This document shows, piece after piece, positions 3,701 to 55,970 of a stretch of DNA of 64,000 nucleotides (the stretch's first letter is position 1; each line of letters starts with the position of its first letter). This stretch comes from Moniliella sp. 'wahieum' (taxonomy: Eukaryota), in assembly GCA_003971905.1 (NCBI GenBank), contig RSEE01000008.1, positions 434,001 through 498,000 on the forward strand, in the 5' to 3' direction. The notes beneath the pieces were generated by a model. The model was given only the letters and a program-made list of their open reading frames with translations. It searched no databases and had not been told where the DNA came from. The translations under genes were made by a program, and so were the position numbers.

Positions 3701-4609
3701 GAGGCCTCATAAGTCATTTCCAGAGGACTGTTAAAGGCCAGAGAGTAGGCAATTGGTAGTGCATTGCATTGCGCATGAGCTACAGAGGCTAGATAATATA
3801 TCCCTGCCCTCCAACACTGGGATGAGGGAATATTGGTAGAAATGAACCCAGAGGTTCCGGGCTTGGGCTACCGGCGCCACTACACCAGTGTGGTGCGACA
3901 GAGACACTCCCCTGTCCCCCCTGTACGTTTGCTAGGGCATCGCATTACGAGAGGTTGCGGTGGGAGGTAAGAAGACAGGAAAAGCAACGCGAATATTGTG
4001 AACGTTGATGAATCAGCCTGCTGCAGAGCCGCACCGGCCACACGGGCGTCGCATGTCGGATGCGCGTCACATGTCACCGAGGAATACCGAGCACTGACGC
4101 GTGACGCGCGGTGCATGATGCCCCCCCTTTCCTCCGATGTGTATCACGTGGTTGCTAGCTTTAAGGAGCGTGGTGCGTACTGCGTTGGGCTAGTCTGTGG
4201 GCGCCGGCTTGGGGGCAGCCTGGCGGAGCGTCACGCGTCACGCGTCACGCCGGAATGCAGAGCCGTTTTCTGAAGAGAATCAGTTTTCCATAGTAGCCCT
4301 GCCAGCTGCCGTTCCAATTGCCTGATGCGGTCGAGTGCCTCGTGGCACAACAGAGCTGTGCAGAGCGACGACGCATGAGGCGGGCAGGAGGCCTGCGGCC
4401 AGTGGTTAATGATTAATGGCGCCAACGAGGGCCGAGGCGAGTAGAGCGGCTCACTCAACGCCAGCCGGCCCCCTTTCCCCCTCTCCTAGCCGCCCTCCCC
4501 GCATCGTAGCTGGTGTCCGACTGCCGGCTCTCCACGCGCCGCGCCGCTCCCTGCTCTCCCGGCATCGCTCGCCCCATCTGTCTGCTTCGCCCGTCCCCGC
4601 CCTCGCCCC

Positions 4610-5401
4610 ATGCCGACGCCCGTGCCAAGGGGCGGCGATCCCCTGGCGCGCTCCCCTCAGGAGGAAGGCCTGCTGCACTCTTCGCCCCTGCGCCACCAGC
4701 TGGCTCACCGCCGCTTCAGGGATGCAAATGATGGTGAGGAGGAGGAAGAGGAGAGGGGGGTTCCCTTATCGTCCCCCCGGGCTTCCACTTCCTCGTCTGC
4801 CTCCACCTCGTCCGCCTCCACCTTTTCCCCGTCCCCCCACTTCACTCGCACCACCCACGCCGAGGCAGAGGAAGAGCAAGTGGAGAGAGGGGAGGAGAAC
4901 GACGAAGACGAGGAAGAGGAGGAGGCGCACGTGCGTGCTACGCTAGCCAAGTGGTCCGAAGCGGAGCGAAGGCGACGAGTACGTCTGACGCATGCTACAG
5001 CGCGCAACCCATCGGAAGGCACCGATGCGCTTCAACGCGACCCGTTCACCGACCCACCTCTGCCGGCGCCTCCCCACCCTATTATACTCCCCGGACGTGC
5101 TGCCCGTCTCCCATCTGCCCCCGTAACGCCCTCACCTGGCTCATCCCGCCCAAAAGGCAAGGACAGAGACCCTTTCGACGACCGTTACGCTCTCGCCCCG
5201 CAGAACGAACCGTACCGCATTGGCAGCTATGGTGGAAGCCAGGCAGATCCCTACACCACCCTCTCCCATACCCCCAGCGACTCTCGTCTTCCCCTCGCCC
5301 AGGGCGAAGAGGAACGGCCAAGGTGGTGGACGGATCTGTTGTGTTGCACATGTGGGGGAGAGGACGCCCCTCAAGCAGGCCATACCAACCCCTTAGAATG
5401 A
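4610..5401 (+). CDS. Hypothetical low-complexity protein with a C-terminal WWTDLLCCTCG...QAGHTNPLE motif
   Basis: Intact 263-aa ATG-started ORF after a pyrimidine-rich leader, with acidic tracts. The C-terminal motif resembles one I recall from basidiomycete hypothetical proteins (unverified). Confidence 0.7.
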   Translation: MPTPVPRGGDPLARSPQEEGLLHSSPLRHQLAHRRFRDANDGEEEEEERGVPLSSPRASTSSSASTSSASTFSPSPHFTRTTHAEAEEEQVERGEENDEDEEEEEAHVRATLAKWSEAERRRRVRLTHATARNPSEGTDALQRDPFTDPPLPAPPHPIILPGRAARLPSAPVTPSPGSSRPKGKDRDPFDDRYALAPQNEPYRIGSYGGSQADPYTTLSHTPSDSRLPLAQGEEERPRWWTDLLCCTCGGEDAPQAGHTNPLE

Positions 5402-5669
5402 CCTATTTTGGCCTTCCTATTTGCTTCAAAAACGTGCACGTTTGGGCCTCTGCTCTATAAAAAGTAGGGCAATCTACGAGAGAGGAGGGATAACTAGTTA
5501 TCAGTCGTTTGGGGTTAGGCTCGACCACGAGAGAGGGAGGACTACACGAAAAAGGACTAGGAAAGTAACGGAAAGACACCGGCGCGGATGTCACGCCAAA
5601 GTAGGAGCCGGAGTTCGACCACGAATGACTTACTGACGCCGCTGGCGGGTGGCAGACCGGAGTGTACGC

Positions 5670-7391
5670 TCAGACGTGCGCGTACTCGGGCCTGGGGTCG
5701 CCAGAAGGCTCGTCAAACTCTAAAGAGGACCCAGACTCTGAAGAGAACTCAAACTCATCATATTCCCCTGCCTGGGAAGGCGGGCCTGCCTGAGCAGAGG
5801 AGCCTGCCTGAGCAGAGGGGCCTGCCTGAGCAGAGGGGCCTGCCTGAGCAGAGGGGCCTGCCTGGGCAGAGGGGTGTTCCCGGGCATAACGGCGCGCCTG
5901 GCCGCGACCAGATAAGGATGTATGGCCCGCACGTGCGGGGCGGGGGACAATGGAGGCACGCCGACCACGACCAGTAACGCCTGGGGGCTCAATAGGAGTC
6001 GCTCCAACGGGGCCTGAATGGCCAGGAAGGTCGCGAGGAGGAGGAGGAAGAGGAGCAGGAGGACGGTGAAACACGAGCGGAGGCGCCACAGGTGCTGTGG
6101 CTGGTACACGAGGCACCTGATCTTGTCTTAACTCAGGCTCGCGGTCTGGCGGTATCGCTTGGGCCGCTTGTTGGAGTGCGGAGGGTGCACAGGAGGCGCT
6201 GCTCCAGGAACCACCGGGGCATCAACCATACGCGGGGGCTCTGCACCCTCAATGCGAGGGGGTGCAGGAGGCGCCAACTGACGATTGTTGTTGTCCCGGG
6301 GGGGGGGATGTAAATAATCCATGGCCGATACCCGTTCAAAACAATATAACGGTCAAGGAACGTGGTCCTCGGCAAAGGTGGAGCCGGGGGGGGGGGGAGG
6401 AGTCTCTCGTCGAGGGGGCCGAGCCCTGGGACCCCCACCATGTAACATTTGTCGGGCAGGGCGCTTACGACGGGTCCGTCTGAAGCGAATGCGAAACTTG
6501 AGCCCTTGATTAACAAAGGAGTTAGAGAGGACGGTTGATTCGGCCATTCCGGGGAAATTTTGGAATTGTATACATGGAAAGGGCCGGAGTACTCCGAAGC
6601 GCAAAAGGAGGTGCGGGTGCCGACGATCTCATAGAGAACGAATTTGAGGCGGTACCAGCCTTCGAGGCGGACTGAGATGTCGGGAAAGACAAAGAAAGCC
6701 TGGCTCCCTCCATCCAGGTCCCGTAGGGTGTACATGCTCGATACACAACTTCCGGTTGTGTACCTTCGGTGAAGGTCGGGAATGACGTGGAGTTCGCGAT
6801 CCTCGCCTGGAGCAACGAGCATGGCATATAGAAAGTAGTGGGGATTGTCCATATACCATGCGTGATCCTCCCATCCAAGGCCCACAGGCGTCTCGCATAG
6901 TTGACCACGTTCCATGAAAGAGTCCACATCCAACAATGCCGAGTGAATTTCGTTATCGGTGTCAACATCGGCGGGGACGTTGGTAACAGGGCGCGGGTGC
7001 GCAACAACGCGCAGCTGCACAATGGGGACAGGGTCGAGCGGGCGACGTTCAGTCCGTGGTCCCTGACCGGACATGCGCGATCGTACAGGATTTTGACGGA
7101 CGACGAGTTGGTACTCGAGCTGATTCCGACCAGTGACGACCTGCGGTGCCGCCGCATAGGTGTAACCAGTCGCAGTTGTGCCAGGCGGGGGCCGAGGGGC
7201 GGGAGCCCGAGCGGCAGCTTCACCCCTCACTTCACCCCCCGCTTCGCGGCCCGCGTCGCCGCCCGTTTCTGCGGCAGGCTCATCACGGTTCGGACACCAA
7301 CTTCAGGCTCTGCTCCTGGCTCTGTTCCTGGCTCTGCTCCTGGCCCTGCTCCAGCCGCGGCGTCTTCGGTTCCGCGTCGAGGCTCGGTCAT
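5670..7391 (-). CDS. Velvet-domain regulatory protein (frameshifted in this assembly)
   Basis: Velvet motifs YQLVVRQNPVRSRMSG..ERRPLDPVPIVQL, FFVFPDISVRLEGWYRLKFVLYEI and, after a 1-bp shift at ~6558, FPGMAESTVLSNSFVNQGLKFRIR. Probable ATG at 7391 (MTEPRRG). The Pro-rich C-terminus is spread over ORFs 6128-6322 and 5670-6116, so the 3' end is less certain. Confidence 0.9.
5782..5874. repeat. 18-bp tandem repeat, ~5 copies (GGGCCTGCCTGAGCAGAG), probably encoding (AQAGPS)n in the velvet C-terminus
   Basis: Directly visible tandem copies. Confidence 0.9.
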
Positions 7392-10807: not shown

Positions 10808-11193
10808 GACATGGGACTGCGTCATCCTGCTGAAGACCCCGGTGGGGGCGATGCTTCCCCAGACGGAGTACCGTAGACACGCGTGTTGTAGGCCGCCGGA
10901 GCCGGCAGCGTGGCGGGGAAGGCGGATTTCACTCGGGCCGCGTGGCCATGCTCAAGCGATGCGTCACCGATTGGGGGGCGGGAGACAACCGCCTCACTCG
11001 GCAGGCCCAATTGAAGCTAGATTGCATAGCCCAGTCACATGGTCACCCGCTGCGCTGCGCTGCGGAACATTGCACCGACTAGGGTTGGCCCCGTTGCGCG
11101 TAGTATCGATGGTAGATAGCAGGCGGGGGGTGGCACGTGCGTGGCCATTGGAGGGAGCTGCCCTCCCCCTCCTCTCTTCCTCTTCCCGTCACC

Positions 11194-16053: not shown

Positions 16054-17243
16054 TGCATGATGCATGATGCATGAGCATGAGCGCTGCGCAGGTGGCGAGA
16101 GGATGCTCAGCACGGGAGCAGTAGAAATTAGGTGTGACCGCGTGACCGGTGAGCTCGCCGGTGATGGGTTCTGTGTTGTCACATGTCACATGTCACATGT
16201 CACAGACCGCCACCCAAAGCACAGCCGAGTCGTCATGATGATGACCTACTTGCCATGTGGGTGATCTTGACGTCGATCCTGTAATGTCGCAGTCGCAGGA
16301 CCAGTCGAGTGAGTCTCTCTCTCTCAGTGCACACAGGCTCCGTCCTGGTTCTGTGTCGTCTACAGGCCACCATTTCTGTACTACCCCAGCCCCGGAACCG
16401 CGAGGACTGAGACTGGCTGCAGGCCTTGTGCCAACGCTGTGGCGGGGCGAACAAACTCCATAAGATCAAGATCGCACATGTGCATGAACGTTTGAACGGT
16501 GAACGTCGAACGTTGAACGTAGTACGACCGTGCGGGCGCCAGTGGCCCGCGTGGTCCTTTAGCTTGATAATCTTATCCAGGCTTAGGCTGGTTACCACAG
16601 TCACTAATAGCTTTACTGGATGCTAGTTACCTTATCGACTACAGGGTTATTAGTCACATATGCGCCGCTGCTGCCACGCCAGAGACCACGCCCCATGTCA
16701 CCCCTGCGCTGCAAGCCATGCCGCCCCAATATTGCCCCTATAGCAAACTAAGGTCCCACAAGCCCTAAGATCCTAGGACCTAAAACCTTAAGGTTTAAGA
16801 CTAAAGCGAAGCTTCAACTTCCTTCAGGTCTTACTTCAAGCTTCAAGCCTCACAGGCCCCAGATCTCGGAGGGCCCCAAGGCAGGCCCAAGCGACGGACG
16901 GCAGTAGTGAAGACGGGACAAGAGGTGTGCTTGCGGCCGAGTTTCCGTGACGCGTGACGCGTGACAAGCGAGATGTGGCACGCGACACTGCGCGCACACT
17001 GCTGAGATTGTTGAACGATAATCGATAATCGATAATCGATGATCTCGAGTTTATATATATCGAAACCATGAAAGTGGTGCGGCATGGTGTGGCTGGTGGG
17101 GTTGGCTTGAGTAAGTAGAAGACAGTTAAACATCAGTGCATTGTGCAGAGGCTCAGCGCTCAGTCTGAGCGCTGAACGCTGAACTCCGCAGCCTGGCTAA
17201 TTTGATTAGCACCTCAGCTAAGGGCGCCGAGCCTCAGCTGAGC
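16054..17243. repeat. Cluster of different 7-bp-period short tandem arrays
   Basis: (TGCATGA)3 16054-16074; (TGTCACA)4 16177-16204; TGAACGT-type 16485-16520; CTTCAAG-type ~16835-16851; (CGTGACG)3 16946-16966; (CGATAAT)3-4 17016-17043; GCTCAGC/GCTGAAC 17151-17184. Confidence 0.85.
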
Positions 17244-17518
17244 CCAGGTTATTAGCGGTTGAGAGCAACTCTGAAGCGCAGCGAAACAGGTGGATTGGAA
17301 CTGATAGTAGTACGTACAAAGTTTATTGGGTATCATCTGCTACACCGTTGCCCCGCCTGGTCCCTGCGCGGTCGAAGGAGATTCTATCGCTTGAAAGGTA
17401 TATTTCAAATATTTCAATTTGGAACCGAAGACCGTGGCGTTGCGAGTCGATACCACATTAAATAGAGAGTTCCTCGTCTGAGGAAAACACTCGGGAACTC
17501 AACGTTCGACGATAATTG

Positions 17519-18400
17519 TGTTGGTAGTGGTGACGTGGATATGATTGCTTTTCGAGGTCCCCTGAAGCACGTCTAACCCTTACGCCCGCTGCTTCCTTTG
17601 TGCTTCTCCCTGTCAGCTTTCTCTCTCTTTAATACGAGAGTAGACGACACCGCTTCCACTACATCTTTAGTGTGTATAAGACCAGAGGAACTGGGTGATG
17701 AATCTCTGGAAATGTATTAGGACAATGCAATCGCGGTGATGTTGTAACATGTAACAGGAGATGGAGGTGAGCGTCATACGCCGGGGCAGCAGGCCCCTTG
17801 GTAAGGATGTCACGAGCGCTGAGGTGGATTGTGGCGATAGCATACTCGGTACGCTGGAGCCAGTCGCGGGTCTCCCATTTGTCGGCTTTGCGGGACAGTT
17901 GTTTGTTGCCTCGGATGCGACAGGGGCGATCGATGGCAGAGTGGATGTCCGGAGACACGGGATCCGAGAGGGTGGGTGTGGCGGTAGGTGCGGGCGCGGG
18001 CGCGGGGGTTGTGGTTGATGAATGATTGAGGTGCGGCAAAAGAGCCTGGATGGTGGCCGCGACAATAGCTTGAGCGTCGGCGGCGGAGGGGGGGGGGGAA
18101 GTGACCACGGGGGGGAAGCCGATCCTGGGGCACCTTGGTTGGTGGGCGCGGGGAGCAAGGGAGAGTCGTCGGCGTCGTCCATCTCGGGGTGGGTCGCGTG
18201 GGACGCAATAGCACGTGTGCGGCGGCTGGACATGGTGTAAGGAAGGTGAATGGTGGAGAGATGTGTCCAGCGGGAGTGGGGTGGGTGATTGGGCTGAAAG
18301 CCGGAAGGCTGAGTGAGATCAAATCTAATAGGAGATGGAGATGGGGGAAAGGATGAGGATCATCTTCATCGAGTGGAAAGAGAGCGAGGTATATATGCCG
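17519..18400 (-). mobile_element. Probable degenerate LTR-retroelement remnant: gag-like ORF truncated by an LTR-like segment
   Basis: Frameshifted ORF from ATG 18233 (Pro-rich N-terminus, then LSRKADKWETRDWLQRTEYAIATIHL) runs into a ~230-bp segment, 17519-17749, bounded by TGTTG...TAACA. No target-site duplication or pol domain was found. Confidence 0.4.
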
Positions 18401-20616
18401 CGGAGAAGAAGAGAACATGCGAGCTAAGTCACATGAAGGAAAAGAGGGAGCACAAACAGCACAGGGTCTAGAACAAATCAAAGGGGGCCAGACAATTTGG
18501 TGACAAAAGGTGATCATGTGAGTCTGATTCCGACATGGTGGTTAAGTCTAAGCCTTATGCCACACCTAAAGGAGATAGGGGTTCAAACAAGCCTGAGTAT
18601 ACACGTGGAGGCTTCGGAGGTCAAACAAGGGGAAAAGGGTGATAAAAGGCACCTTGGCCTATGTACAGGATCACGGGCCGCAACATAGTATGTAACCATG
18701 TCATTGACAGAGAGCTTAAGACTGGGACGGATAAACGATGTGCCTAAACCGACCCCTTCACCCCGCGTGTGTTGCTTGTCGGCGCAAAACTCATTTGAGA
18801 ACCAGGGAAATCGCCAGGAGAACAACAGGACCCTCTGGTGCCGGTCATCCGTTCCCATACCCGAGGTAGCGCGTGTGGATACGAATGAACGTGATAGACA
18901 TCTGAGGGTGGTTCATCTCCATTATAACTGTGAGTATAGTTAATTTCTTCCAGTTTCCAAGCACCTTGCCCGCTGTCTTGGTGGCATAGTATCATCGTGT
19001 CGTCAAAAATCAAAGGGAAAACGGTTATTGGGTGCTTCTCCGGTAATACTTATTGGCGTTCCTGTCGCATTTTGCCTTTTCTAGGAGCCGAAGCAGCTCC
19101 TTCTCCCGGCGTTCCAAAAGCGTCAAGGTCCTCTCATGTACCACCCTCCAGTACGCGGCCTGCGCCTCCTGCGTTCCCAAGTCGGTGGTCTACCTCCATT
19201 CCTGATCCTTCGATTGCTCCAGGTCCCATCAAGCTGTAGGCCCAGTGGCTCCCTAGTTCTATATACTTTGTGCACCTGTTCGTGCTCGTCATCGATGTGA
19301 CAATGTCATCCTTTACTTGTAGTCGGTGTAAACTGAGTACTGAGTTGAGTACTGATTGCTGTCACTTGGACTCGGCGCAAACAGCGTCGGCATCTATTCA
19401 ACGACGGTTCAAAAACGTCTGATCAGCGATTCACACAGCGCTGCGTCTCAGCTTCAACATCGTCAATATACTAACCGAACCGTTCCCCAACAGCGCGACG
19501 TCTTTTATGGCCGCATTTCTTCGTCTGGGACTGATCCAACATCCAATAATCAATCAATTGATCACCCAATGTAAAGTACCAAAGTGTGTCAACGTAGCGC
19601 CTAAAGATGTCAAGGCCTATGAACGTGTTATGAACCCACAGGCCAGTCGCGTTGTTTACCGTGTGTTCTTCCTCTCTGGTATACAAGGCGCTATTGCATG
19701 CAGCATAAAGGAATCCCAAAGCGGTATCCAAAGCAATTTCCCCTCAAGTCACAGATGGAGTGCACACATGGTTGAAGGCGGGCTCCCTCACTCAATTTCT
19801 TGCGGGCTCCAAGCTTGTATTGGGCTCGTGGGCAGGCCATGTTGTGTCACAACTCTAACATCAGTTCTCACTTTTGCACTTGTAAAGAACAGCTCGTAGG
19901 GGGCGGTGCTGGAGATCAATCTGGACGTTCCTGTTCGAGTTTGAGCTCCAGGCACTTATACCTGCGGGTATCAAAGAAAGAGAAAAAATGGATACAGCTG
20001 ATGAGAGAACTCACTGTTGTGCTCAACCACGTTGCCAATACATCCGCCTCCTTGAGAGGCTGTTGAATATCTCCTATCGATGCATAATCTCATCTGCTGT
20101 ATTTCCTTATAGTATGTTGTTGCTTCTTCTTACACTCCCGCGTGCGGTGCAATCTAGACCAGTCGTGTGGCAAGCTGCATCTTCGCACACAACCGAAGGG
20201 AGCCGCTGATGGCTCATGCGCGCTCATGATTACCATGCCAAAAAAAGGTAATCGGATTTCCTTCCTGTGGGAGGGGAGGTCCTCTCATTCACTAGAATCC
20301 GTCGAAGGTTGTCCACAGAAAAGCCACGTCCTCTGCGGAATCCTCATATCCCACCACGCAAGGTCCTGGAGGCCTCGAGCCCTCTTCTCGGTCCGTTGAG
20401 TACTTGACTGGGTACCGCGTGTCGAACGTCCAACGTCGAGTGGTGAAGTATAGTGCAAACATTGCCAATTCCGCGAGTTGCGAGTAGCAACGTTGCGATT
20501 CGAGCATGGTGTTCGGTGCAAGGCTAGCAAATGCGTGGGCAAGCAATTTCATAATTGTAACCCCCGGATTTTTTCAGCCCGGAGAAACGGCGGCGAAGAA
20601 CCCGAAGGAAGCAGGC

Positions 20617-20652
20617 ACGACGTCAGTGGGCGGGGTGGCGTCATCGCGTCAT
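20617..20652. promoter_or_regulatory. Three clustered CRE/CYS-3-like bZIP sites upstream of the MetR-like gene
   Basis: ACGACGTCAG (20617-20626), GTGGCGTCAT (20635-20644) and ATCGCGTCAT (20643-20652), each 1-2 mismatches from ATGRYRYCAT. Confidence 0.45.
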
Positions 20653-23817: not shown

Positions 23818-24089
23818 GGAGATGATGGAGCGTCGATTGGATACTGAGGCGTGGGACGGGGCGGGGGGGGTAGTGACTGGCTGGAAGCATCCGTGCTCTC
23901 GATAACACGGTCCACATGATCCGACATGAGAGGGAGGGGGTTGCACCGACTAGGGTTGACTGCTCGATAATCGATAAGCACGAAAAGCACCACATGCGTT
24001 AGCTAAGCAGCGCTCTGCCGTAGGAAATGGGCATATGCATCACGCATCGAGCTCGATGATCAGCCATTAGTCGGCGTACTTTAACCTGC

Positions 24090-33363: not shown

Positions 33364-34112
33364 CGGGAGGTGGTGTAGGCGGGGCCTGCGCAGCTCGCGC
33401 CCCCCACACCTAGGCTATCTCGGGGCCACCCGTTGCATGTAAGCTACTGGCCAACGGCTCGTGTTAGACACGACTCAGTGTACTCAATGTGCATGCAGGC
33501 GTCTCTGTACTTGGTTCGCAGGGACAAAGCTTACGAGGAGCAAGCAGCACATCCCCTCCTCCCCGCACCCAGGCAACAGCCCTGGGGGGCGCAGCCGGGG
33601 GGAGTTAAGTAGGGGATCCATACTCCTATTGGCTCCGCACATCCCATGCGCTCGAGCAGGTTGCGAGGTGACCGGTGACACTTGAAACTTACAAGGGAGA
33701 CAGTGTGGGGGGAATATATTTGCCACCTGCAAGATGCCTATAGTAGGACCCGTCTAGTAGCAGCTGCAAGCGAGACTGCGGTTGTAAGCGTGGTGCCTTT
33801 GGGCGCCTGGCTGCCCTGCCACAATGAAACGTCTGGCTCACGTTTGCATTTCGCCACCAATGGTGCTGCTCATCCACTCATCGCTTCGGTCACGCGTACG
33901 CCCACGCGGCCACGACAGCCCCCACACGCACAGCACATGCATCAGTCTGCAAAAGCACAAAAACGGTCCAAGTCCGATCGAGCCTCCGGACCATCAGCGA
34001 CCGTAGCATACCGGAGCGGAGTGACAGCGGCCCTCCTCCCTCCCACGCGGGGCTTATATCCCCCCGTAGCACACACACCCTGCGCATGCCCCGCCCTCCT
34101 CCCCCCATCAGC

Positions 34113-34997: not shown

Positions 34998-35966
34998 CAT
35001 TCCGATCCTGAATCGTTCTGGATAATCTCGACGGTGACGGCCAAGGGTGGATGCTGGGGAGGGAATGACACTGCATGCCAGCTGCTGTTCGCCCCCTTTT
35101 GGTTTTGTCCCACCTACCTTTCTTTAGCGTGAACCCCCCCGCCCACGTGCCATTTGATGGCATGCGGCTTCTCTTGTTTCCTTCACGTTTCGCGGTCATG
35201 AAACCCATGACACGCATTACCAACTGAGTGCGGCTGGGAAAACAGTATGATGAGACCTGGGAGAGAGGGATGTAATCGCACCAAGTGGTGGCGGTTGTGG
35301 TGGCCTAAACCAACGAACAACGCTGACATGGTACAGAGGAACATCAATAACCTTCAAGCAGCTAGTCGCCACCAAGGGCTAGGCTGCGGAACAAGAAAAA
35401 CAGAGACGAGAAAACAACGCAACTCCTGCGGGCCTGAAGAGGGACCGAGGGGGGACGTTTTGGCCAAAATACAACGAGCCACCCGGTGGCTCAACGCATA
35501 AGTAGAGATGGCAACTTGGAGCCTGGGTAGTCCTTAGGTTCTCTCCCAAAGCACTGCTCTCATTCCCTTTGCATTCTCGTGCATCACGTAGGAGATACGG
35601 AGAGTACCTGAGTACTGAGTACCTTCCCGACGCGTTTGGTCATGAGGGAGAGCGACAAAGCGAGACCGAGGTTTGAAGATGGACAGAGAACATGGGATTT
35701 GCATGGGATCCCACGGCGGAGAAGGGAGACGGGAGACGGGACACAGGACGTTGGTTGGCCACATGAAAAGGAGAGCAAGGCCAAGCCACGAGAGCCACGA
35801 GCACACCAGCGACCGGATGATCATCCCCCCGCACACCTACCAGAGCTGGCTGCCAAGTGCCAAGTGGCAAGGGCCACGTGACTCGTTCCCATATTTGCAG
35901 ACAGCCAAGCCGCTCCTGTCGCACCTGTCGCACCAGCTCGCACCTGGGATGTCGGAGGATGCCGGG

Positions 35967-36067
35967 CACCGATCACCGATCACCGGTCACTAGTCACTAG
36001 TCACTAGTCACTAGCTTCACTAGTCCCCGATCATCAATCATCGATCACCGATCATGAATCATCAATC
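35967..36067. repeat. 7-bp lattice with invariant TCA and variable 4-mer spacers
   Basis: TCA at 35973, 35980, 35987, 35994, 36001 and 36008, then after a 2-bp slip at 36017, (TCC 36024), 36031, 36038, 36045, 36052 and 36059. Confidence 0.9.
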
Positions 36068-36976
36068 GGCGACCTCCTGCTGATCACCGATTACACACCC
36101 ATGATAGTCCTTGGCCTGACTAATGATTGGGGCGGGGAGAGTCGCCGACGGGAGCCCCCGCCGCGCAGCCGCAGGCAGCGGTCTGGAGGAGTTAGAGCTG
36201 CCAGGTGCGATTGACGGAGCCGACAGTGGTCGGGTGCTGGAATCCACTCACTGACTGGTTAGTCGCTACTTGAAGCGTGACGCGTGACGCGTGAAGCTAA
36301 AGTGCACAACCCGCCGGACCGCGACAGCTCGCCCACACATTTGGCGCTTTGAAATTTGAAGCTTGAAGCTGCGCTGAGCTCTGCCTCCTGTTAGGCTGGC
36401 ACAGTGCGTCCACGGCGCTCCTTCGCCGGTGGCCGGTGGACGTTGAAGGCATTGGACATTATTTCCAGTTGACAGGGTAGGCCAGGGCCCGCAGGGGGAC
36501 AGCGGACTCAATCTGGACCGAGTTTTTGTTTACCGTGCCGATCTCGATCATCGATCACTAGACATTGTCGCTAGCAGCTTGAGGTGACGCATGGGACAGC
36601 CATTGTGTTGTACGCACCAGCGGGCAGCTGGGCAGACGAGGCTCACGCTCTGGCACAGTCTCCCCGTGGCGCCCGATGGCCGGGCGGGAGCAGGGGGGCA
36701 GCCAGGGGCACCGGCTGCAGGCGGGGCCTTGCAGAGGCGGAGCATGGCGTCCTGCTCCTGGGCACTGGACCGGCCCTCGCCTCGCGCGCCCAGTGACATT
36801 GGTCGCAGATCGCACAGCCTAGCGCAGTCCTATAGTCCTAGGCCCGCGGCGTGCTTTGTGCGTTTCCACCGAGTGCTTTTGCCACTTGGCTTCCTTTGGT
36901 TGCGTCCCTGTCATTCCGTCCCTCTCCTTTCCTTTCCTTCCCACCCCCAACCCCCATCCCTCCCACGGCCGCCGCC

Positions 36977-40445: not shown

Positions 40446-41288
40446 AAGAGGAAAGCAAACGGCCTCTTATCCTCCCCCTCTCTCCATCGCACTTTTCTTT
40501 TGATTTGGGACATATCACGAGAGCACCTTCCCTTGCGCTCTTCCTACGACTCTCTTACCCGCCCTTGCTCTTTTTTTCTCCATCGTTGCGTGCAACTTTT
40601 TTGGTTTTGGCGGCTCTGTGAACATCGCCATTCCGTATGATTTCCCCCCCCTTGATTTGTTTTTACCCAACCCAGGGCCCGATCGGGGCCCTTTCTCACC
40701 GCTTGCTCCGTATTCCCACGCCTATGGATTCCCCACCCCGTATCTCTCTGCCGTTGATCCCTGTCTTCCCGTCTTCGGGCCCGTACCTTGCTTTTTGTCC
40801 TTGAGATGATCCTCGTCCCTGGTCTTCGTTCGCACCGCGCTCCCCCACACCGCCTTGTCGGGCGTCCTATATCCCTGTTTCTCACCTCTTCACGTTCTCG
40901 TGGTTTCACAGATGTCTACGGAAAAAATGTCGGTAGCGCTCCCGCTCAGGTCCGAATTGCCGCCATAACAGTAGAAATCTATCCATCGCTCTCGGAACGG
41001 AATAGAATGGGATGCCGAGTACAGGAGAGCGGTATAGGTTGAAGGCGTTGAAGCTTGAAGGAATGATTTTGGAGATGGTGTGGCCTACACCACCCGTCCC
41101 CCTTGCATATATGCAGCAACAGCACTCTGCCTCGGAGAGAGAGAGAACCAGAGAACCAGAGCGCACATATATAAGCTGCCGGCGTACAACCACTAAGAGA
41201 AAGCGCCCAGATATCTCGTCTCCGCCATCATCCTCCCCATCTATCCTCTCCGCCACATTACGGTTACAAGATGATCAGCAGCCTTGCC

Positions 41289-41563: not shown

Positions 41564-42628
41564 GTGGCACAGATGTGCCCCACCCAGGTCCTCCTTTGGG
41601 TGCTCTTCGGCCTTTTGATGGCTCATTGCCTCATGGGGGCGGGAGTTTGAGAGAGGGGGGGGTGCACTTTCCGCGCACTATTATACAAGACATACATTGG
41701 CTCTCCTCCTTACTGCGTCCGCGTCCTTATTACACACCCTCAAAAGCGTGTAGTGTTATGGTGCGCTCGATAAATGGGTTTTTGGTTTCCACCACCCCTT
41801 TGCTGCTCTTCTTCTTCGTGTCTCTTTTGCCACTATGGATCCCTTTTTTGTCCATCACACTTACTATCACCTTGATCTTGTGAAAAGCCTTGTTCATCGA
41901 CTTCATCTGTGAAAAGCCTTCATCGACTTCATCAGGTTCATCTTCACCCCCCACTCCCACCCTTTCTCCCCCCGGGCAAAGGAATCCGCATAGCGAACGC
42001 TCCTGCTTGAGATCTGTTGGAGGTCTGGTATGCGGTAGCGCGGATGCTGAAGGAGGAGTGGAATGGAGGATGTGGTTCTGAGGAGAGGTGCAGGAGGCGA
42101 TGAGAAGGATATAGGGCCTTACATAGCCGAGAGTACCGCGGAGCTGAGGGAGCATCCGGGCGGATAAGAGGGGGGATGCCTATCGCGCAGGAAGGCGTCA
42201 TTGGGGCATCGCCCCAACAGCGGATGCAATGGATCGCTTGATCGCTTGATATTGATATTGAGCGGGCGCCAAGGGAAAACTTATTGATCGCAATCGTCGG
42301 CAAGTCGATAGGTGATATAGGCTGTGACCATGTGACATGGGACCATGAGACATGTGACCATGTGACATATGATCTGGATAGCCTGCAGGGGACCAGGGTT
42401 GTCGTCCGTGCACCGTCGTGCACCCCCAATCCCCACACTGGTCCTAGGCCTCCTCCCACCGGCGTTGCCTGTCAGTACTCAGTGCGTGTGCCTAACATCT
42501 GACCGCTGAGGCCCGAACCGGCCAGGGCTACCATCGGCAGCGTATATATTGGCGGTCCAGGCAGTGCAGCCTCCGTTCTCGCCATCCCCCGTCCTCTCCA
42601 TCCCCCCTCCGCCTCCTCCGTCCCTACG

Positions 42629-44538: not shown

Positions 44539-44772
44539 GCGCGGCCGACGGGGTGCAGCGGTTCGGCCTGCACATGCTCACGCAGCCTGTGCGAGGGCGT
44601 TGAGGTGCGCAATGCCGATGGTGGCAGTGCGTGGGGACACGGATGGATGCGAGGCTGGAGGTGGTGGTTGGTCTGGCGATGATCGATGAAGCTCTCACTG
44701 AGCCGAGAATCCATGTATTCCGCGGTGATTCTGTACCCCCTCCGTGGTATTCCGTAGCTTGGATTCCGTGGC

Positions 44773-44946
44773 ATACCGTGTTCATACCGTGTTACCGTGC
44801 CCATACCGTGTTCATACCGTGCTGGTACCGTGTTCATACCGTGCTCGCACCGTGTTCATACCGTGCTGGTACCGTGCTGGTACCGTACCTATACCGTGTC
44901 CATACCGGGCCAATACCGTGCCTATATACCGTGTTCATACCGTGTT
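44773..44946. repeat. ~11-bp minisatellite (ATACCGTGTTC/GTACCGTGCTG), ~16 units
   Basis: Directly visible, with more degenerate TCCG units leading into it from ~44718. Confidence 0.92.
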
Positions 44947-45598: not shown

Positions 45599-47643
45599 TC
45601 AATGGACAAATCGGAAGTCCAGACGCTCGTTGCCCTTGTCCTCTGTGGTCTTGATGTAGTGCGCCTTGTCGGTGGCCGACATGCGGCCCCAGACCTTGTC
45701 CCTCTTCTTGTTGAGCAAGACGTAGAAGAGCTTCGTGCCGCCATAGAGGAAGAAGTTGATGGTGCAGACTGCCAACAAGCCGGCATTGGCGTGCCGGTAG
45801 CCATCTTTCTCATCCGAGGGGCGGTACACTTGACTCCCGATGATGGAGGTGATCTGGACAGAGATGTTGTACATGCTGGTGGCCACCGTGCGTGTGGCTA
45901 CATCACCAGAATTGGCGCTGACCCAGGACGCTTGGATCGCATGCACATACGGTGCCGACAGCGCAGTGGTCACCACCGCATAGTACTTCCACGCGTATTG
46001 TTTGTGCCCACTGGTCGTTCCCGATGGCATCGCCAAAAGCGCCACCAGGCACGGCCACGCCCACATATCCTCTGTCATGCACAGCAGGGTTCTTTGATTG
46101 AACTGTTCCGCCAGGATGCGCGACCGTCAAGCCAGTAAAGACCTGGACAAGGTTGTTGACGCTAGACAAGGTCTGGGTGACAACCGTCGAGAAGCCCAAC
46201 TTCTTCAGGTTGATGGTCAAATACGCGTTGATGGGTGAGGTGGGCAGGCCAAAACTGACCCCGATCACATACATGGGCCACATGCGGTAGTTGCTGACGG
46301 CGCGCCACAAGCTCTTGCGGTCCAAGCCTTGTCGGTTGTGCATCGATGACTTTTGCGGCTCATCGCGCAGGATGCGCGCAACGGCAATCTTAGCTTGCCG
46401 CTCGTTCAGGAACCCGTACGACTTGCCCGGACGAGCAGTTTGAGAGGGGGATGCAGGCATCACGTAAAACGCCACAAACGAGACCAAGATGGTCAGAAGC
46501 CCCCCGAGCAAAAAGACCCAGTAAGGTGCCGGGTAGCCAGGCACCGACTTGATTTGCAAAAAACCCAAATTGATGTAGTTGGCCAAGAATAAAGTAAAGT
46601 TGAGAACACACCAAAAGAGACCAAGCGGGTAGTGAGTTCCGAGCCACGGTAAAAGAAACTGAGCAGCAGCACTTGAAAAGCGAGAGAATCACAGGTTAGG
46701 GCGATGCAGACATGGTTATTGTCAACGGGGGCAGGTTTAGAGACGTACAAATGTCAGGGATGAAGGAACCTTGGCACAATCCCAACGCGGCACGCAAAAC
46801 AAAGAAACTCTTGCGACCTTTGATGAAGAACTGGCAGGCCGTTACTACGCCCAGGCAAACATTTGGAAGGGGATAAAACGATCGGGGCCGACACGCTTCG
46901 ACAAGAGCTGTCCGGGCAACTCGGCGCTCAGGAAAGCAAGGTAAAAGATGGTTTGGCCGTTGTTGAAGTCTTTGTAGTTGAGATTGCTGTGTTGGAGAAA
47001 TCCAGCCGAATTGGCACTGGAAATGTTGGAACGGTCTGAAGAAGCGGCGAGTTAGGCGACTGGTTTGGTAACAACAAGGGATGGTGCACTTACCGAGATT
47101 GAGTAGGGCAAAAAAGAGAGCACACCATGCAAAGACGTTCAAATCAATCTTGCGAATCACTTGGGCCTCTTCCCTCCAGGTCCAGCGAAGGCTTGGGTCC
47201 CAGTTCTTCTTGTTCTCCCAACTGTCAGGGGTTCGTACACAGAGCATAGCTCCGGAATGTCAAACACACTCGGTGGGTGGCAGTGCTGTCCAAGTCCCGG
47301 GGTGCCGGGCGGTTTTTGCGAGGTCGGAGATAGTCCAAGATCTTGCTCGCTACAGGCGGGTCTGGGGACAAGGTGGGATCGATTTTGAGAAGCTCTTGCG
47401 CCTCTGCTTCGGTCAGACCACCCACCCGTGTCGTTGTCACCACCTCGTTAACTCCCTCTGAGGAGGGAGAGGGAGAAGCGCCGTCGGAATAGGCATCGTG
47501 CCTTTGGTCGAGATGGCATCCTTGTTAATGATGCTCTCCTGGTCGAAGTCCTCCCTTTGCGTCTGCCCTAGCTGAGGCATGATGTCCTCCGACTCGGCTG
47601 GGTTGACGTCGCGGACGTCGATGGTGGCCTTACCCCCAGACAT
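45599..47643 (-). CDS. MFS anion:cation symporter (allantoate permease family), Soa1/AstA-like; frameshifted
   Basis: WDPSLRWTWREEAQVIRKID, LDRSNIS, ELPGQLLSKRVGPDRFIP, QGSFIPDI..LSFFY..ELTTRL, ILRDEPQKSSMHNRQ and C-terminal GNERLDFRFVH. Introns 47036-47093 and 46672-46748. Confidence 0.88.
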
Positions 47644-49609
47644 GATGAAGTATGAGGAGTAACCTTAAGTGTGGAGGTGGGTTGAGTGCGAGAAAAGGGG
47701 GTGTGGAAGCGTTGGAAGAGATGGAAAAGGAGCTTGATCCGCCGTAGGTTATATACAGCAGAATTTACAGGAGAGAGCAGGGGTATCCTTTTGCGTCAAG
47801 CTCGCCATTGAACCGTGTGGCGAGCGCTACGGTCGCGACTTGTCCTGCGTCCTCAGTGTGACCGTTTTCAGATGCGGCTGAGCTCGGTGCCTGGATGGTG
47901 TAGGAGATAGAGTTGCGGACCTAACTCGTTGCCTCTACCTGGCACCAACACCCATATTGGTGTCAGCTAGCGTGCAGTCCCGGACATTTTTGGGGCTTTT
48001 CCTCCAGAAGTCGCTTTGTATCATACGGCTGCTGTGCTCATGGTGCTCCCCACAGCGCCCTGGGGCAGGCAGCAAGAGCGCCTCAGGGGGTAACCAAAAA
48101 CACGTAAGGGAAAACTGAACAACCTAGGCAAGAGATGACTGACATTACCGCTTAACCACTGTTCCACTGTTGCATGTTACACTGTTATCGACAGCAACAG
48201 GACCACACACGCACGCCATCTGTACACGATGCATGGAATACAGCGGTAGCTCCGGTAACTGTGTGATGCTTGGCCAATTTTATCTCGTTCCCACAGCAGG
48301 ACTTGTTCCGGACGCACGCAGTCATCGTATTTCCGCCTCATGGGCCCTTGGGCTGGCCCGTCGGAAGGCTTCACTTGACTGATGCCCCACCACTGTCGGG
48401 TCATCGATCTCACCGGTCTCCCTGCTCAGGATGACGATCTTTGCGACCTCCCCCAGCGGGAGAGCACGCTAGCGAGCAGGTGCAATCATTAATCAACGCG
48501 CTCACGGTGAGCACTACGCCAGACTGCGCTCGTAGGGGCGTGTCCTTGGTGCCGGTGCCGGTGATCGCACAATCGGTGCGCATGATGCATTACAACGTTG
48601 GGCGCTTAATGTTTAACCGCGGTGTCGGTCACCGGTTTCCATCAGGCAGTTGCTCAGTACTGCGCGCCCGATGCGCCGCTCTTGCTTGTGGTGGCGAATG
48701 CTGCTGGCCACCTTGCTTGTGGGCGCGAGCAGGGGCCCAATGTGCCCCCTGAAGCCGGGAAGCGTCAGCGTCAGCCTCAGCGCAGGACGCCATGTGAGGG
48801 GTGCGTGCTTCCTCCAGACGATTCAACGCACAGCAGAGACGACGCCGCAGACAAGGGAGCACGACATCGCGTCTGGGTTCTGGGCAATGCGTACGCTGCT
48901 TTTTCAACATTTCATCCACCTCTCCGTCTCCCGGCCGCACCAGTGCCACCTGCCCTGCCGCCCCACCCGAGCGGAGTTGCTCAAACAGCATACCCGAATT
49001 AAACGCCTCCGCCGGCGCCACCGCCTTGCCCAAGACGCAATTTCCTCCAGGTGAACGTTGAAGACGTTGAAGCAGCAAGAATGGCCAATGTCCGGATGGC
49101 CGCAATCCCTCTCACGGACGCGTGAGTGGCACGAGACGCATGACGCGGCGCTAGTTGAAGTTGTGGCGTACTCTGTGCGCGTTTTACGGCCGGCTAGAAT
49201 ACAGAGCAGCCTGAGGGACGCCATATATTTTCGGTCTGCCACCCGGAACTTATCACTCTCCAATCTCATCGATCCCCATCTCTGCGGGACTCTGGTAACC
49301 GGTAACCGGTAACCATCCTTCTGTTCTGGGTGACGAGGAGCAACATCAAGCATCCCAGTTCATCAATATGAATGTGTGGAGTAGGAGGGTAAAGGTGGAA
49401 TAAAAAGTTAGGTTGGTGTGAAAACGAGAAACATACATATGGGACGAGGCTGGCTCCAGTCCAGTTCTCCATCTCAACTTCATCGAGATGAACTTGATCG
49501 ACTTGATCGATCATCGGCACCACCGCCAGACCTGATAAATATCAAGCATGGGCCCTTGACAAGCGCGCGCATGCAGCATGGGCCTTCCACAAGGAGGGGT
49601 CACCGGTCA

Positions 49610-52600: not shown

Positions 52601-52834
52601 GCCAGGGGTGGCGGAAGCGACCCTCGATCTGGATGGCGAACTTGCGACTGCGACCCTCAAAGTATTTGCGCCCGGGTTCGCCCTCGCGAGCGCCGGGCGC
52701 ATCGAGGATGCGCACCAGCACGCGGCCGACAAAGTGCTCGGTCTCGATGTCGTGCGGGCGCTGGGCGTCGTTCAGCCGACACGGCTCCAGGTGGAAGCGG
52801 TCGGGACCAACCCAGACTTCGAGGTGGGTGCCAT
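49610..52834 (-). CDS. DUF1769-domain protein with a large low-complexity insertion; frameshifted
   Basis: N-half IETEHFVGRVLVRI..YFEGRSRKFAIQIEGRF..IIFGTDFD..IDP..PFIMSP; C-half RRKYF..D..HRENLVFDP, TTFFTN, MPLRYTLR. Introns 49857-49936 and 49697-49756. Confidence 0.8.
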
Positions 52835-52893
52835 GATGGAGAGGATGGTGGTGAAGGTGTGCGAATAGAAGCAGTGCGTCATATCAGCCGATC

Positions 52894-52996
52894 CAACCAG
52901 CAACCAGCAACCAGCAACCAGCAACCAGCAACCAGCAACCAGCAACCAGCAACCAGCAACCAGCAACCAGCAACCAGCAACCAGCAACCAGCAACC
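52894..52996. repeat. (CAACCAG)14 heptanucleotide microsatellite
   Basis: 14 perfect copies at 52894-52991 plus a partial copy, ~60 bp upstream of the DUF1769 gene start. Confidence 0.97.
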
Positions 52997-53427
52997 TACA
53001 CCCTGCCAACAGCAGCCACCCAGCAGCCAATCCACCCAATCCAGCCTGTGCAGGCCAGTGCTCGATCATCCATTGCGTCGGTATCATCCATGCTGGACGC
53101 CCGATCGCCGATTATGCAACCCGTCATATATTCACTGCCATGGAGCGGCCAGAGGCCAGACGCTTCACTCTTCACTCCAAGCGTTAAGCTTCGCTTCACT
53201 CCCCCCGTGACGTGTGACATGGCACAGGTGACAGGCGACAGTTGGCGCGCACCGTCACGTGCGGCACATTCGACTGGTGACGCGTTCCGGTCGGTCCCCC
53301 GGGTGACATAATCGGTCACGTGCCCAACAACCACCGCAGTCTCGCCCCACGCACGCGAAACCAACACTGCTGCCTTCGCGACGACACTGGCCGCCACCAG
53401 CGACAACCACACCACGTGCGTGCAGCT

Positions 53428-53904
53428 ATGGTATCCTCGCTCGCGCTCGCTTCGCGCCCCCCCGCGCTCGACACGGCTGGCACCGTCGATTCATCTGCTG
53501 GGTCAGACAACCCGTACGCTGGCCACCGCCACTTGACCGAAGAGCAACAGACCCTCCTTTACGAGTACGCCCGCCTGGCTGCCACCCTCCAAAGCGTACG
53601 CCTCTTCCCGTGCTCGCGCACATCCCACGCTTTTCCATCGCACTACTAACACGTTTACCCCAAGGTTTCCTCGCGCGCGACCGCCCTATCGGCGACCAAC
53701 ACCCACAGCGCACTTCTCTCGGAGCTGCGAATTCTGGAACGGAAAATGGGCCTGGTGCTGACGCTGTTCAAGGCCAGTGTCTGGAGTGTCGTCACGGCCG
53801 ATACGGATGCCATGGTTGAGGAGGGCATGGACCAGGATCAGGGGGAGTACGCAGAAGGTGAGGGCCAGTATTACGACGCGGAGCACGGCTACACGTACGA
53901 GTAG
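53428..53904 (+). CDS. DAD3: DASH/Dam1 complex subunit Dad3
   Basis: NPYAGHRHLTEEQQTLLYEYARLA, intron 53596-53664, then LLSELRILERKMGLVLTLFKASVWSV; stop at 53902-53904. Confidence 0.92.
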
Positions 53905-54472
53905 GCGAGCCAATCACTGCTAGCCCATTTGTACCCACCTCAGCCCCACCCCTCACCCGCGTCCCGTAATAGGGTCCTGTATGCCACATCAGGTTCAGAG
54001 TGTAATTGTATTCATGTTTTCCGCCTCCTCCGGTAGCTGCTTCCAAGCATCCTCTTCTCCGTACTGCATGTATCTAGAAGACCTTAGCTTCTAAGGCTAC
54101 CTGGTGCTGACGTGCATGTGAGGGAATATGTTGGATACAGTGTTCCGAGGAGAGGTACAGGAGACTGAGGCATAGCGCCTTATGCAACCGAGGATACCGC
54201 GGGGCACAGGGAGCACCCACATGGATCGGAGGGGTATTTCCTATCACGCCATGTCGCGCAAAAGGGTGCATCATTCCAACATCCTCAACACTTCAAGAGA
54301 CTCAGAGAAACTCATCGTATGTGGGGGTTTGTGTTACATAGTAGGCTCGACGAGAAGGGGGGGAGGGGATCGCAAGGGGGGGTGGGAGGAAGCGAACGGG
54401 AGGTGGACGCAGTCAACGGGGGAAGAGAAGTTGGAAGATGCCTAGGCAAGATTGAATGGCCAACTCCAAGGC

Positions 54473-55045
54473 TTACCAGCCTCCCTGGTTGCCGCCGTAA
54501 CCTTGCTGGCCGTAACCGCCTTGGGGTCCACCGTAACCGCCTTGGTTGCCGCCGTAGCCGCCCTGGTTACCACCGTAGCCGCCCTGGTTGCCACCGTACT
54601 TGTTGTCACCGCCAAATCCGCCCGAAGCGAACGATTCCTCTTCCCTCTTGGCCTTGTGCTCCTCGTAGCGGCCGTGAATGTGCTCGCCAACCTTCTTGCC
54701 TACCTCGGCAAGAATGGCACCGCCAGCAATGGAAACAAAGTTGCCATGCTGCGAGCCGGTCGCCTTGTTGGCAGCAAAGCCAGCAAGGCCGCCGAGGGCC
54801 ATGGTGCCGAGACCGCGGTCACCACCCTCGCCCTGGTTGCCTTGGCCGTCAAACTCGTTGCCGCCGCGGTATTCCTGGTTGGCGCCGCCTTGGTACGATT
54901 GGGACTCTCCGTAGCCCTGGTTGCCCTGGCCGTAGCCTTGGTTTTGGCCGTAGCCTTGGTCTTGGCCGTAGCCCTGGTTTTGGCCGTAGCCTTGGTTTTG
55001 GCCGTAGCCGCCAGCGCCGGGTTCAGGGAAGCCACCGTAGGACAT
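54473..55045 (-). CDS. Gly/Tyr/Gln/Asn-rich repetitive protein with a central glycine-zipper-like segment
   Basis: Intact 190-aa ORF with (GYGQNQ)n and (GGYGGNQ)n repeats flanking GDRGLGTMALGGLAGFAANK. Confidence 0.85.
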   Translation of the reverse strand: MSYGGFPEPGAGGYGQNQGYGQNQGYGQDQGYGQNQGYGQGNQGYGESQSYQGGANQEYRGGNEFDGQGNQGEGGDRGLGTMALGGLAGFAANKATGSQHGNFVSIAGGAILAEVGKKVGEHIHGRYEEHKAKREEESFASGGFGGDNKYGGNQGGYGGNQGGYGGNQGGYGGPQGGYGQQGYGGNQGGW

Positions 55046-55970
55046 TGTGGTTGAGAGGGTTGGAAGGTGAGGTGGGGGATGGAGGTGGGGGGGAGAGATG
55101 GGCAGGAAGCTCGTGGGGGGGAAAACCAGAGTGGAAGGTGGGGAGGCGCCTTTTAAGAAGCGTAGGGCGCTGCTCCAACCCGCGCTGCAGCGACCAGTGA
55201 GCCTGCGCCGATGGAATGGACAGTGGAGATGTCAAGCACAGGGCGGGAGGCAAGTGTGGTGCCGCTGTGTGACACAGTGGTGCTCAACGCACAGGGGCGC
55301 TGTCGGCGTTCCTCCTGCCCACACGGCACTGCGGCCGCCTGTCCAGGCACCTGCGTGGACCGGGCTGTGCACGGCCGTCGGGGTGTGACATGTGACGCAT
55401 CCGAACAGACTGCTGGGCTGCGGAGGGCTGCGGACTGCGTTGCATTTGCTCAGCGGGCGGCCGGCCCGACGCAACCGGACGCATCATGCATTGCATCAGA
55501 TGCGACCAGATGCCGCCGATAAGCGGAACTGGCCCTGTGCTGCGGACCACCGATGTTTGCGCTCGGCTGGCTCATTAGCGCTGCGCCGCGCGCTGCTGCT
55601 GGCTGCTGGCTGCTGGCTGCGTGCAACCTCGGCCCGGACACCACCTGGCACCCGAGCTGCCCCAGGCTGCCCCGTGCTGCCCTCCCTTGGCAGTCCCCAA
55701 ACCGCGTGAAGTTGGCGGGTAGAGCACACTGCCCCTGCGCCCCTGCGTTCCTGGGTCGTCCAGCCCCAGGGTACTCAGTCGGAGTACTCGGTACTCCAGC
55801 GCTCAGCCCCTGGCAGGCGCCGGCTGCGCGGGTCTGCGCAGGCGTCTGCACTGCCACGTACTGCGCTGCGCTGGCCACGTCACCACCTCCGTCGGACATG
55901 CGCAGACCGCCCGCGCTGAGGCTATGCTGGGCGGAAATGCAGTTCCGCCCCTCGCCACGCAGAGTGGATG

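Follow-up and report, generated by a model that had tools for sequence, protein, structure and literature searches.

A 64,000-nucleotide stretch of the genome of the fungus Moniliella sp. 'wahieum' (contig RSEE01000008.1 of assembly GCA_003971905.1, positions 434,001 to 498,000; hereafter the window, in which all coordinates are counted from the first nucleotide of the stretch) was found to carry short arrays in which a heptamer is repeated head to tail. The arrays differ in sequence and follow one rule. Each unit has the form y'x'-T-N-A-xy, in which the two arms are complementary and the central base is free, and can equally be described as a palindromic hexamer A-xy-y'x'-T (A....T) plus one free base. 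We show that the whole 7-bp unit is copied directly beside itself with its centre unchanged, almost only at symmetric units of the type T-(G/C, rarely A)-A, and that the arrays occur only where a 7-bp insertion leaves reading frames intact. Many words of one shape copied head to tail point to an undescribed DNA-duplicating process. The fungal evidence was drawn from this one window of 64 kb.

Self-complementary heptamers repeated head to tail

Period 7 was the sole over-represented non-triplet repeat period in the window. Perfect self-matches of at least 12 positions were counted 12 times at lag 7 and 4 times at lag 6, with one case each at lags 5, 8, 9, 11 and 12 and none at lags 4 and 10, and 27 of the 125 rows obtained with Tandem Repeats Finder (TRF) have period 7. 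The original prediction made for this DNA called for counting period-7 T-N-A arrays against shuffled controls and other periods, and an excess was found: lattices of at least three T.A triplets spaced by 7 bp occurred 21 times, whereas 100 dinucleotide shuffles had 5.3 on average and never more than 12. The corresponding numbers at periods 5, 6, 8, 9 and 10 were 4, 12, 2, 9 and 1 (about 5 in shuffles) and period-7 lattices of A.T, C.G and G.C triplets numbered 6, 45 and 32 (5.0, 34.5 and 36.1 in shuffles); other periods and other triplets are at the shuffle level. Pairs of T.A triplets sharing the same middle base at lag 7 amounted to 95 against 34.9 ± 6.1 (z = 9.9), the signal being echoed at lags 14 and 21. 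The perfect period-7 arrays comprise 16 that follow the rule and 14 others, and because these 14 are close to the numbers of runs of at least 7 at the neighbouring periods 5, 8 and 10 (12, 16 and 13, respectively), the entire period-7 excess corresponds to the symmetric T-N-A class. The earlier argument that independent slippage would not converge on one period and one anchor triplet is supported, and it applies to the self-complementary arms as well.

Units symmetric under reverse complementation were present in 16 of the 30 perfect heptamer arrays of at least two copies, as compared to 11%, i.e. 3.3 arrays, expected; palindromic spacers are thus enriched, as had been proposed. T-N-A stands at the symmetry centre in all 16 of these arrays, which represent at least 10 different units, and among perfect arrays of only two copies 8 of 17 already obey the rule. 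No symmetry enrichment was detected at periods 5, 6 and 8 to 12, the lone symmetric period-9 case consisting of T-C-A plus AATATT. When partial copies were counted, 47 loci fitted the rule: lag-7 runs with a symmetric T-N-A unit and lengths of 4, 5, 6 and at least 7 were observed 16, 7, 8 and 16 times, against 2.8, 0.7, 0.2 and 0 times in shuffles. At the centre of the unit, G was found at 24 of the 47 loci, C at 19 and A at 4, but T never (G or C, hereafter S, at 43 loci), without strand bias between G and C. The palindromic 4-mers used at these loci are 14 of the 16 possible, a figure that supersedes the eleven reported before partial arrays were counted. The rule-following arrays are short, ranging from 2 to about 4 copies, and display point-mutation decay.

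Complementarity of the arms was specific to the T-N-A centre. Both arms are paired in 31 of the 53 lag-7 runs of at least 5 that hold T.A, as compared to 4 of 34 for A.T, 1 of 49 for C.G and 3 of 49 for G.C. Within 11.9 kb of DNA poor in open reading frames (ORFs), a set hand-drawn from the ORF list that takes in a few short ORFs without Pfam hits, 26 of 84 symmetric sites of the type xxTNAxx are in tandem, whereas none of the 158 sites of the A-N-T, C-N-G and G-N-C types is. Lone xxTNAxx heptamers outside arrays are not enriched (158 versus about 175-185 expected), and the symmetric heptamer therefore looks like the substrate of the process rather than its product. T-S-A alone is shared; the core GTSAC is present in 8 of the 16 units, and ACGCGT was seen at 4 loci. 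Choice of a target by base consensus does not account for arms in which nearly every palindromic 4-mer is found, complementarity itself being what is kept. Both TRF and the exact lag-7 runs identify the arrays as short head-to-tail tandem repeats. They do not have the composition expected of sequence-blind slippage, given the excess of symmetric units and the complete lack of tandem sites with other centres.

All arrays listed in the original prediction were recovered, either at the positions reported for them or a few bases away. Some have spacers that include non-palindromes, as had partly been acknowledged (CGTG, CATG and CAGG at 53208-53236), and some, at 17151 and 55384, reach 1.6-2 copies. 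Heptamers of the ATTCACG type, mentioned there for Ustilago maydis, would fit less well: ATTCACG would give the spacer CGAT, which is not palindromic and misses the full rule, and our literature search returned nothing on such heptamers in U. maydis. A reading of T-N-A as a stop codon on one strand, providing stops in three frames per 21 bp, was dropped on the ground that orientations are mixed within a single spacer.

The central base allowed us to distinguish direct from inverted copying. In decamers composed of T-N-A, a palindromic 4-mer and T-N-A, the two middle bases agree in 50 cases; they are complementary in 4 and differ in another way in 3. Shuffles yielded 2.2 for the class with the same base. 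Since the central base is repeated unchanged, the arrays must have been made by direct duplication of whole units and are not inverted repeats or cruciform-type sequences. This argues against the fold-back or template-switch process that had been proposed as one source of the arrays, which would have the next centre occupied by the complementary base. The window also contains fewer perfect 10-bp palindromes of the type cNc'-xyy'x'-cN'c' than dinucleotide shuffles do (9 versus 17.4), which hints at palindrome avoidance. The length of the 16 perfect arrays leaves a remainder of 0 modulo 7 in 8 cases and of 1 in 4, and four arrays are exact multiples of 7 in the symmetric phase. These are the lengths that exact 7-bp copying without flanking microhomology, plus chance matches in the flanks, would give. 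In having a fixed length of 7 bp, a direct copy of the whole unit with the same N and a symmetric motif, the arrays resemble target-site duplications and excision footprints of transposons.

Distribution, predicted folding and surroundings of the arrays

As had been claimed, the arrays lie outside recognised coding sequences: all 31 loci whose run is 5 or longer fall outside the ORFs supported by Pfam, which cover 34% of the window, and the ORF-poor DNA holds 15 of the 16 perfect arrays. Ten of the 16 are concentrated in two spacers of 3.2 kb together, at 16.0-17.7 kb, 5' of a glycoside hydrolase family 5 (GH5) gene, and at 35.3-36.8 kb, 5' of a kinase gene. The two clusters have no sequence in common except (CGTSACG)n, found at four loci, so that the arrays are not copies of one dispersed element, and no conserved flanking motif was seen around them. 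With the perfect arrays masked, lag-7 autocorrelation in the two spacers remained at 0.29 and 0.32 as compared to about 0.26, whereas spacers 2529-4412 and 47459-48609 gave no lag-7 signal. The view that the arrays lie mostly on the 5' side of genes is correct in part only. Three partial arrays were located closely 3' of the COG7, kinase and carboxypeptidase ORFs, and the class is therefore not confined to promoters.

Folding energies were computed with DNA parameters. Arrays of at least three copies are predicted to form hairpins of -3.1 to -8.3 kcal/mol, as compared to -0.6 to -2.6 kcal/mol for shuffles, in which T-N-A is the loop and each unit contributes one N.N mismatch. Single units are predicted not to fold (0 kcal/mol) and, by our own reckoning rather than a computed fold, two copies would form a stem of at most 2 bp. 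Among designs with the same arms, T-N-A centres gave predicted energies of -6.9 and -8.3 kcal/mol, whereas C-N-G and G-N-C centres were more stable (-10.3 to -15.2 kcal/mol). The T-N-A rule is thus not explained by hairpin stability, and nor are the two-copy arrays.

Table 1. Heptamer arrays and related repeats of the window; rows carry no strand assignment.
Position	Array	Remarks
4095..4108	(TGACGCG)x2	symmetric unit CG-TGA-CG
4228..4250	(GCGTCAC)x3.3	unit CG-TCA-CG; predicted hairpin -8.3 kcal/mol, loop TCA
16054..16074	(TGCATGA)x3	unit CA-TGA-TG
16177..16204	(TGTCACA)x4.0	exact whole units
16485..16520	(TGAACGT), about 5 copies	imperfect, 82% matches
16834..16848	(CTTCAAG)x2.1	
16946..16965	(CGTGACG)x2.9	unit recurs at 4095, 4228 and 36275
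17016..17040	(CGATAAT)x3.6	unit GA-TAA-TC
17151..17184	GCTCAGC x1.9, then (CGCTGAA)x2.1	second array near-rule, a single arm paired
17400..17417	(ATATTTCAA)x2	sole period-9 analogue, TCA + AATATT
17743..17756	(TGTAACA)x2.0	
19332..19355	(ACTGAGT)x2	followed by decayed copies
23964..23977	(TCGATAA)x2	about 15 bp outside the PhyH ORF (minus strand), on its upstream side
33667..33679	GGTGACC GGTGAC	partial; 3' of COG7 ORF
35608..35622	(CTGAGTA)x2.1	
35967..36067	TCA lattice of about 100 bp	spacers in order CCGA, CCGG, CTAG x4, TCAA, TCGA, CCGA, TGAA
within 35967..36067	(CACCGAT)x2.7 and (GTCACTA)x4.1	both part of the TCA lattice
36275..36294	(GCGTGAC)x2.9	
36348..36370	TGA-AATT, then (TTGAAGC)x2.1	
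36544..36557	(TCGATCA)x2	
41048..41060	TTGAAGC TTGAAG	partial; 3' of kinase ORF
42323..42372	alternating 8/7-bp units TGTGAC(C)A	5' of carboxypeptidase gene
44677..44689	CGATGAT CGATGA	partial; 3' of carboxypeptidase ORF
49294..49314	(GGTAACC)x3.0	exact whole units
53206..53236	decayed TGA lattice	spacers CGTG, CATG, CAGG; 5' of Duc1 ORF
55384..55396	TGTGACA TGTGAC	partial

The longest heptamer array of the window by far, a perfect (CAACCAG)x14.7 at 52894-52996, abuts the Duc1 ORF (minus strand) on its upstream side and is not self-complementary; its presence indicates that long period-7 arrays are tolerated in the window.

The window has a G+C content of 58%, and its gene map was built from ORFs and Pfam alone, without annotation, the codon-usage signal in the window being too weak for a gene model. 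The genes recognised from ORFs and Pfam are typically fungal (among them velvet, cyclin, NST1, COG7, KA1 kinase, Duc1, a MutS homologue and trehalose-phosphate synthase/phosphatase). The window belongs to a fungus of the Ustilaginomycotina, and its S10 carboxypeptidase is nearest to proteins of that group, with Tilletiaria anomala as the best named match (60% identity), and shares 83% identity with a match in an assembly contig. Rfam and tRNA scans of the window detected no RNA family and no tRNA. The MutS homologue at 56832-59557 carries domains I-IV on one ORF and domain V on a second that overlaps it in another frame; an intron is the simplest explanation. Tandem repeats with units of 18, 21 and 54 bp, all multiples of three, were found at 5767-5900, 54510-54598 and 54927-55009; the last two lie inside a 343-codon ORF without Pfam hit (54169-55197), which probably encodes a repeat protein. 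Directly 3' of the carboxypeptidase ORF, at 44772-44946, an 11/22-bp repeat, CATACCGTGTT, is present in about 16 copies with 73-75% matches.

Possible origins of the arrays

We tentatively favour, as a possible origin, a specific mutational process in which a 7-nt staggered break is filled in and rejoined, the arrays being neither copies of an element nor the site of one protein. The first duplication would be produced by a pair of nicks of two-fold symmetry, 7 nt apart, leaving 5' overhangs centred on T-S-A. Fill-in of these overhangs and rejoining of the ends would amount to the chemistry of target-site duplication with no insert retained. Filled-in staggered breaks joined by end joining are a known source of short tandem duplications. 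Each copy would restore the target, so that an array could grow unit by unit, and later diversification by slippage and point mutation might have given rise to structures such as the 100-bp lattice at 35967-36067. The cutting could be done by a dimeric enzyme akin to transposases or recombinases. We count in favour of this staggered-break model the direct copying of whole units, the strict centre, the symmetric heptamer as apparent substrate, the absence of a dispersed element shared by the clusters, the precedent of palindromic target sites in DNA transposons, the single fixed step, with a symmetry excess confined to period 7, and the avoidance of coding DNA by arrays that are found both 5' and 3' of genes. 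Furthermore, the 16 intact rule-following runs and the 15 of length 5-6, as compared to shuffle means of 0 for the former and of 0.7 and 0.2 for the latter, indicate a high rate of birth or turnover.

Several observations weigh against a staggered break. Its weakest link is that it leaves unexplained the need for exactly complementary arms of any sequence. Arms that vary freely and are yet both paired in 31 of 53 runs indicate base pairing, of which the model makes no use. We know of no enzyme with such properties, and none was found. In the window, a search for elements with terminal inverted repeats (TIRs) bordered by a 7-bp duplication gave one match, at chance level, and none with duplications of 8 or 9 bp. 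Non-symmetric variants such as (CACCGAT)x2.7 also form arrays, and the whole case is built on a single window of 64 kb. Known transposases, as far as they are described in PMC2577343, read a consensus and not palindromy as such.

Structure-assisted slippage is a conceivable but somewhat doubtful alternative, in which hairpins formed by the arrays, with their T-N-A loop and N.N mismatches, would stabilise slipped intermediates or hide a looped-out unit from loop repair and flap removal, thus leading to expansion, very long arrays being lost through hairpin instability. Complementarity that is independent of sequence can be read by base pairing alone, and the hairpins predicted for arrays of at least three copies are more stable than those of shuffles. 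Rule-following arrays end at about 4 copies where the non-symmetric (CAACCAG) reaches 14.7, and within one lattice the spacer shifts from CCGG to CTAG while remaining palindromic. With an odd period every unit necessarily has a mismatch, and the arrays could be tolerable for this reason in a window where perfect 10-bp palindromes are about half as frequent as in shuffles. Palindromic loops escape mismatch repair in yeast. However, a first duplication by slippage is impossible without a pre-existing repeat, and 8 of the 17 two-copy arrays obey the rule although single units are predicted to stay unfolded and two copies would pair over at most 2 bp. C-N-G and G-N-C centres should also be favoured by their greater predicted stability, yet no tandem site of the A-N-T, C-N-G or G-N-C type was found, and periods 9 and 11 should fold better than period 7, yet there is just one period-9 case. 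It is rather unlikely, in our view, that the arrays are selected cis-elements, in line with the earlier proposal that a DNA-binding or chromatin protein recognises them. In that case a protein or chromatin feature would read a flexible T-S-A kink every 7 bp, alike on both strands; with three kinks per two helical turns, the lattice could be a nucleosome-excluding or general regulatory mark of promoters. On the DNase-I scale no trinucleotide is more bendable than TCA/TGA, and in yeast nucleosomes are tuned by tandem repeats in promoters. The concentration of 10 of the 16 perfect arrays in two long spacers 5' of genes, the lag-7 autocorrelation that persists there after masking, the strong conservation of T-S-A along the decayed lattice at 35967-36067 with variable spacers, and the recurrence of ACGCGT and GTGAC-type cores and of (CGTSACG)n at 4 loci are all consistent with selection. 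Nevertheless, arms drawn from 14 of the 16 palindromic 4-mers would be unreadable by a sequence-specific factor, their exact complementarity has no obvious reader, and partial arrays are found 3' of three ORFs as well; these 3' arrays and the freely varying arms speak against one sequence-specific promoter factor and are compatible with an effect of shape or on nucleosomes. Moreover, the similar-sized spacers 2529-4412 and 47459-48609 lack a lag-7 signal, many arrays are just 14 bp long, and the mixture of intact and decayed copies resembles turnover, not conservation.

Transposon excision footprints are an improbable source. They would consist either of a 7-bp palindromic duplication left behind or of the 3-bp duplication of a T-N-A-targeting element of the PIF/Harbinger type to which 2+2 end bases are added, making 7. 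T-N-A is the target of the IS5/PIF/Harbinger group. The same N is found on both sides, and with a palindromic 4-mer between T-N-A triplets a sum of 3+4 = 7 comes naturally for a footprint. Seven-bp palindromic duplications are on record for the P superfamily (PMC4168063). On the other hand, a 3+4 footprint predicts mainly lag-7 runs of 3, whereas the surplus above shuffles amounts to about 6 for runs of 3 and to 43 for runs of at least 4. No fewer than 14 families of elements, differing in their end dinucleotides, would be needed, three- and four-copy arrays would require repeated hits at the same site, and the window contains no element, TIRs with a 7-bp duplication being at chance level. Fold-back or template-switch synthesis, in which the opposite strand is copied, has in its favour that the arrays are self-complementary except at N; the centres, however, are the same far more often than complementary and true palindromes are depleted, which makes this origin most improbable. 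We give equally little credence to a sequencing or assembly artefact: the 47 loci comprise many different units, set in unique sequence; they avoid coding DNA and display graded mutational decay, and to our knowledge no basecaller or polisher error takes such a form.

Relation to known repeats and significance

In the literature searched, arrays of this type were described neither for fungi nor for other eukaryotes and, for 7-bp duplications, only the precedent of the P superfamily was found. Among cut-and-paste DNA transposons, palindromic target sites subject to a staggered cut are described, insertion being better predicted by the match to a motif than by palindromicity (PMC2577343), and for Galileo, of the P superfamily, 7-bp duplications with the consensus GTANTAC and a free centre are given (PMC4168063). 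The target-site duplications of Galileo and 1360, as these two accounts present them, resemble our arrays in being direct, fixed at 7 bp and symmetric about a free central base, and they result there from a symmetric staggered cut that is filled in. Unlike them, the arrays of the window flank no inserted element, have T-N-A rather than A-N-T at the centre, admit any self-complementary arms and reach up to 4 copies.

With microsatellites and promoter tandem repeats generated by slippage the arrays share short head-to-tail non-coding repeats, point-mutation decay and, probably, variable length. They differ in their single period, strict reverse-complement and T-S-A rule and very small size, and in that the rule already holds at two copies, where there is nothing for slippage to act on. 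'Palindromic microsatellites' have been named in Fusarium mitochondria (PMC7218506). Disease repeats of the CAG/CTG type likewise form a hairpin with regularly spaced mismatches, whereas the units of the window are 7 bp long with arbitrary arms, in tiny arrays that show no long expansion.

Heptameric repeats are described as over-represented, without explanation, in many bacterial genomes, with GGGAATC of Xanthomonas and GGGGA(T/C)T of Nostoc among the examples (PMC4692102). Like our arrays, these repeats have a period of 7, lie between genes and are of unexplained origin. In contrast to those genomes, each with one unit family that often forms inverted array pairs, the window contains many unrelated units that follow one rule: instead of a few units at many loci, at least 10 units were found in 16 perfect arrays, and the clusters are otherwise unrelated. 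The commonest unit of the window, (CGTSACG)n, was also found in at least 125 metagenome contigs. Among the matches listed, S is the same throughout in 248 and mixed in 22, and the contigs carry essentially that single unit family, with G+C contents of 0.33-0.76; judged by unit family and G+C, they look prokaryotic. In 430 kb around the metagenome arrays, among the matches listed, 13 further T-N-A runs with a symmetric unit and a length of 5 or more were counted, versus 31 in the 64-kb window. One metagenome contig of 11.6 kb (L043-L046; 45% G+C) carries 13 separate (CGTCACG)n arrays of a single-unit heptamer family. In viral contigs, the symmetric T-S-A unit was found at 33 loci and its composition-matched symmetric counterparts A-S-T, C-S-G and G-S-C at 7, 6 and 6, whereas a non-symmetric T-S-A control unit was commoner still (67 loci). 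This control, CGTSAGC, forms long arrays in the viral contigs (L166-L232), up to 82 bp or more, and exceeds any symmetric unit tested. A universal preference for symmetric T-N-A heptamers is accordingly not supported. The special feature here is the occurrence of many unrelated units under one rule within one genome.

We put forward as a speculation, and a rather doubtful one, that in this fungal lineage 7-bp duplications are written by a distinct activity, which would act on every heptamer with reverse-complement symmetry about T-S-A. Such a writer would be a target-site duplicator without insert, e.g. a domesticated transposase, a recombinase or a base-pairing-guided nuclease that cuts both strands at symmetric sites only. 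If it exists, it would keep making and erasing short intergenic arrays and thereby cause fast change of regulatory sequences. Short tandem duplications are usually regarded as noise of sequence-blind slippage or end joining. Here, one rule (7 bases, self-complementary arms and a T-S-A centre) covers about half of the heptamer arrays, at about one locus per kb of non-coding DNA, and implies a dedicated, unrecognised route of making or keeping repeats. Should an enzyme be responsible, it would represent a new kind of genome-writing activity and might illuminate the unexplained excess of heptamers in bacteria; should the effect be structural, the arrays would provide a clean natural test of mini-hairpin bias in the birth of repeats.

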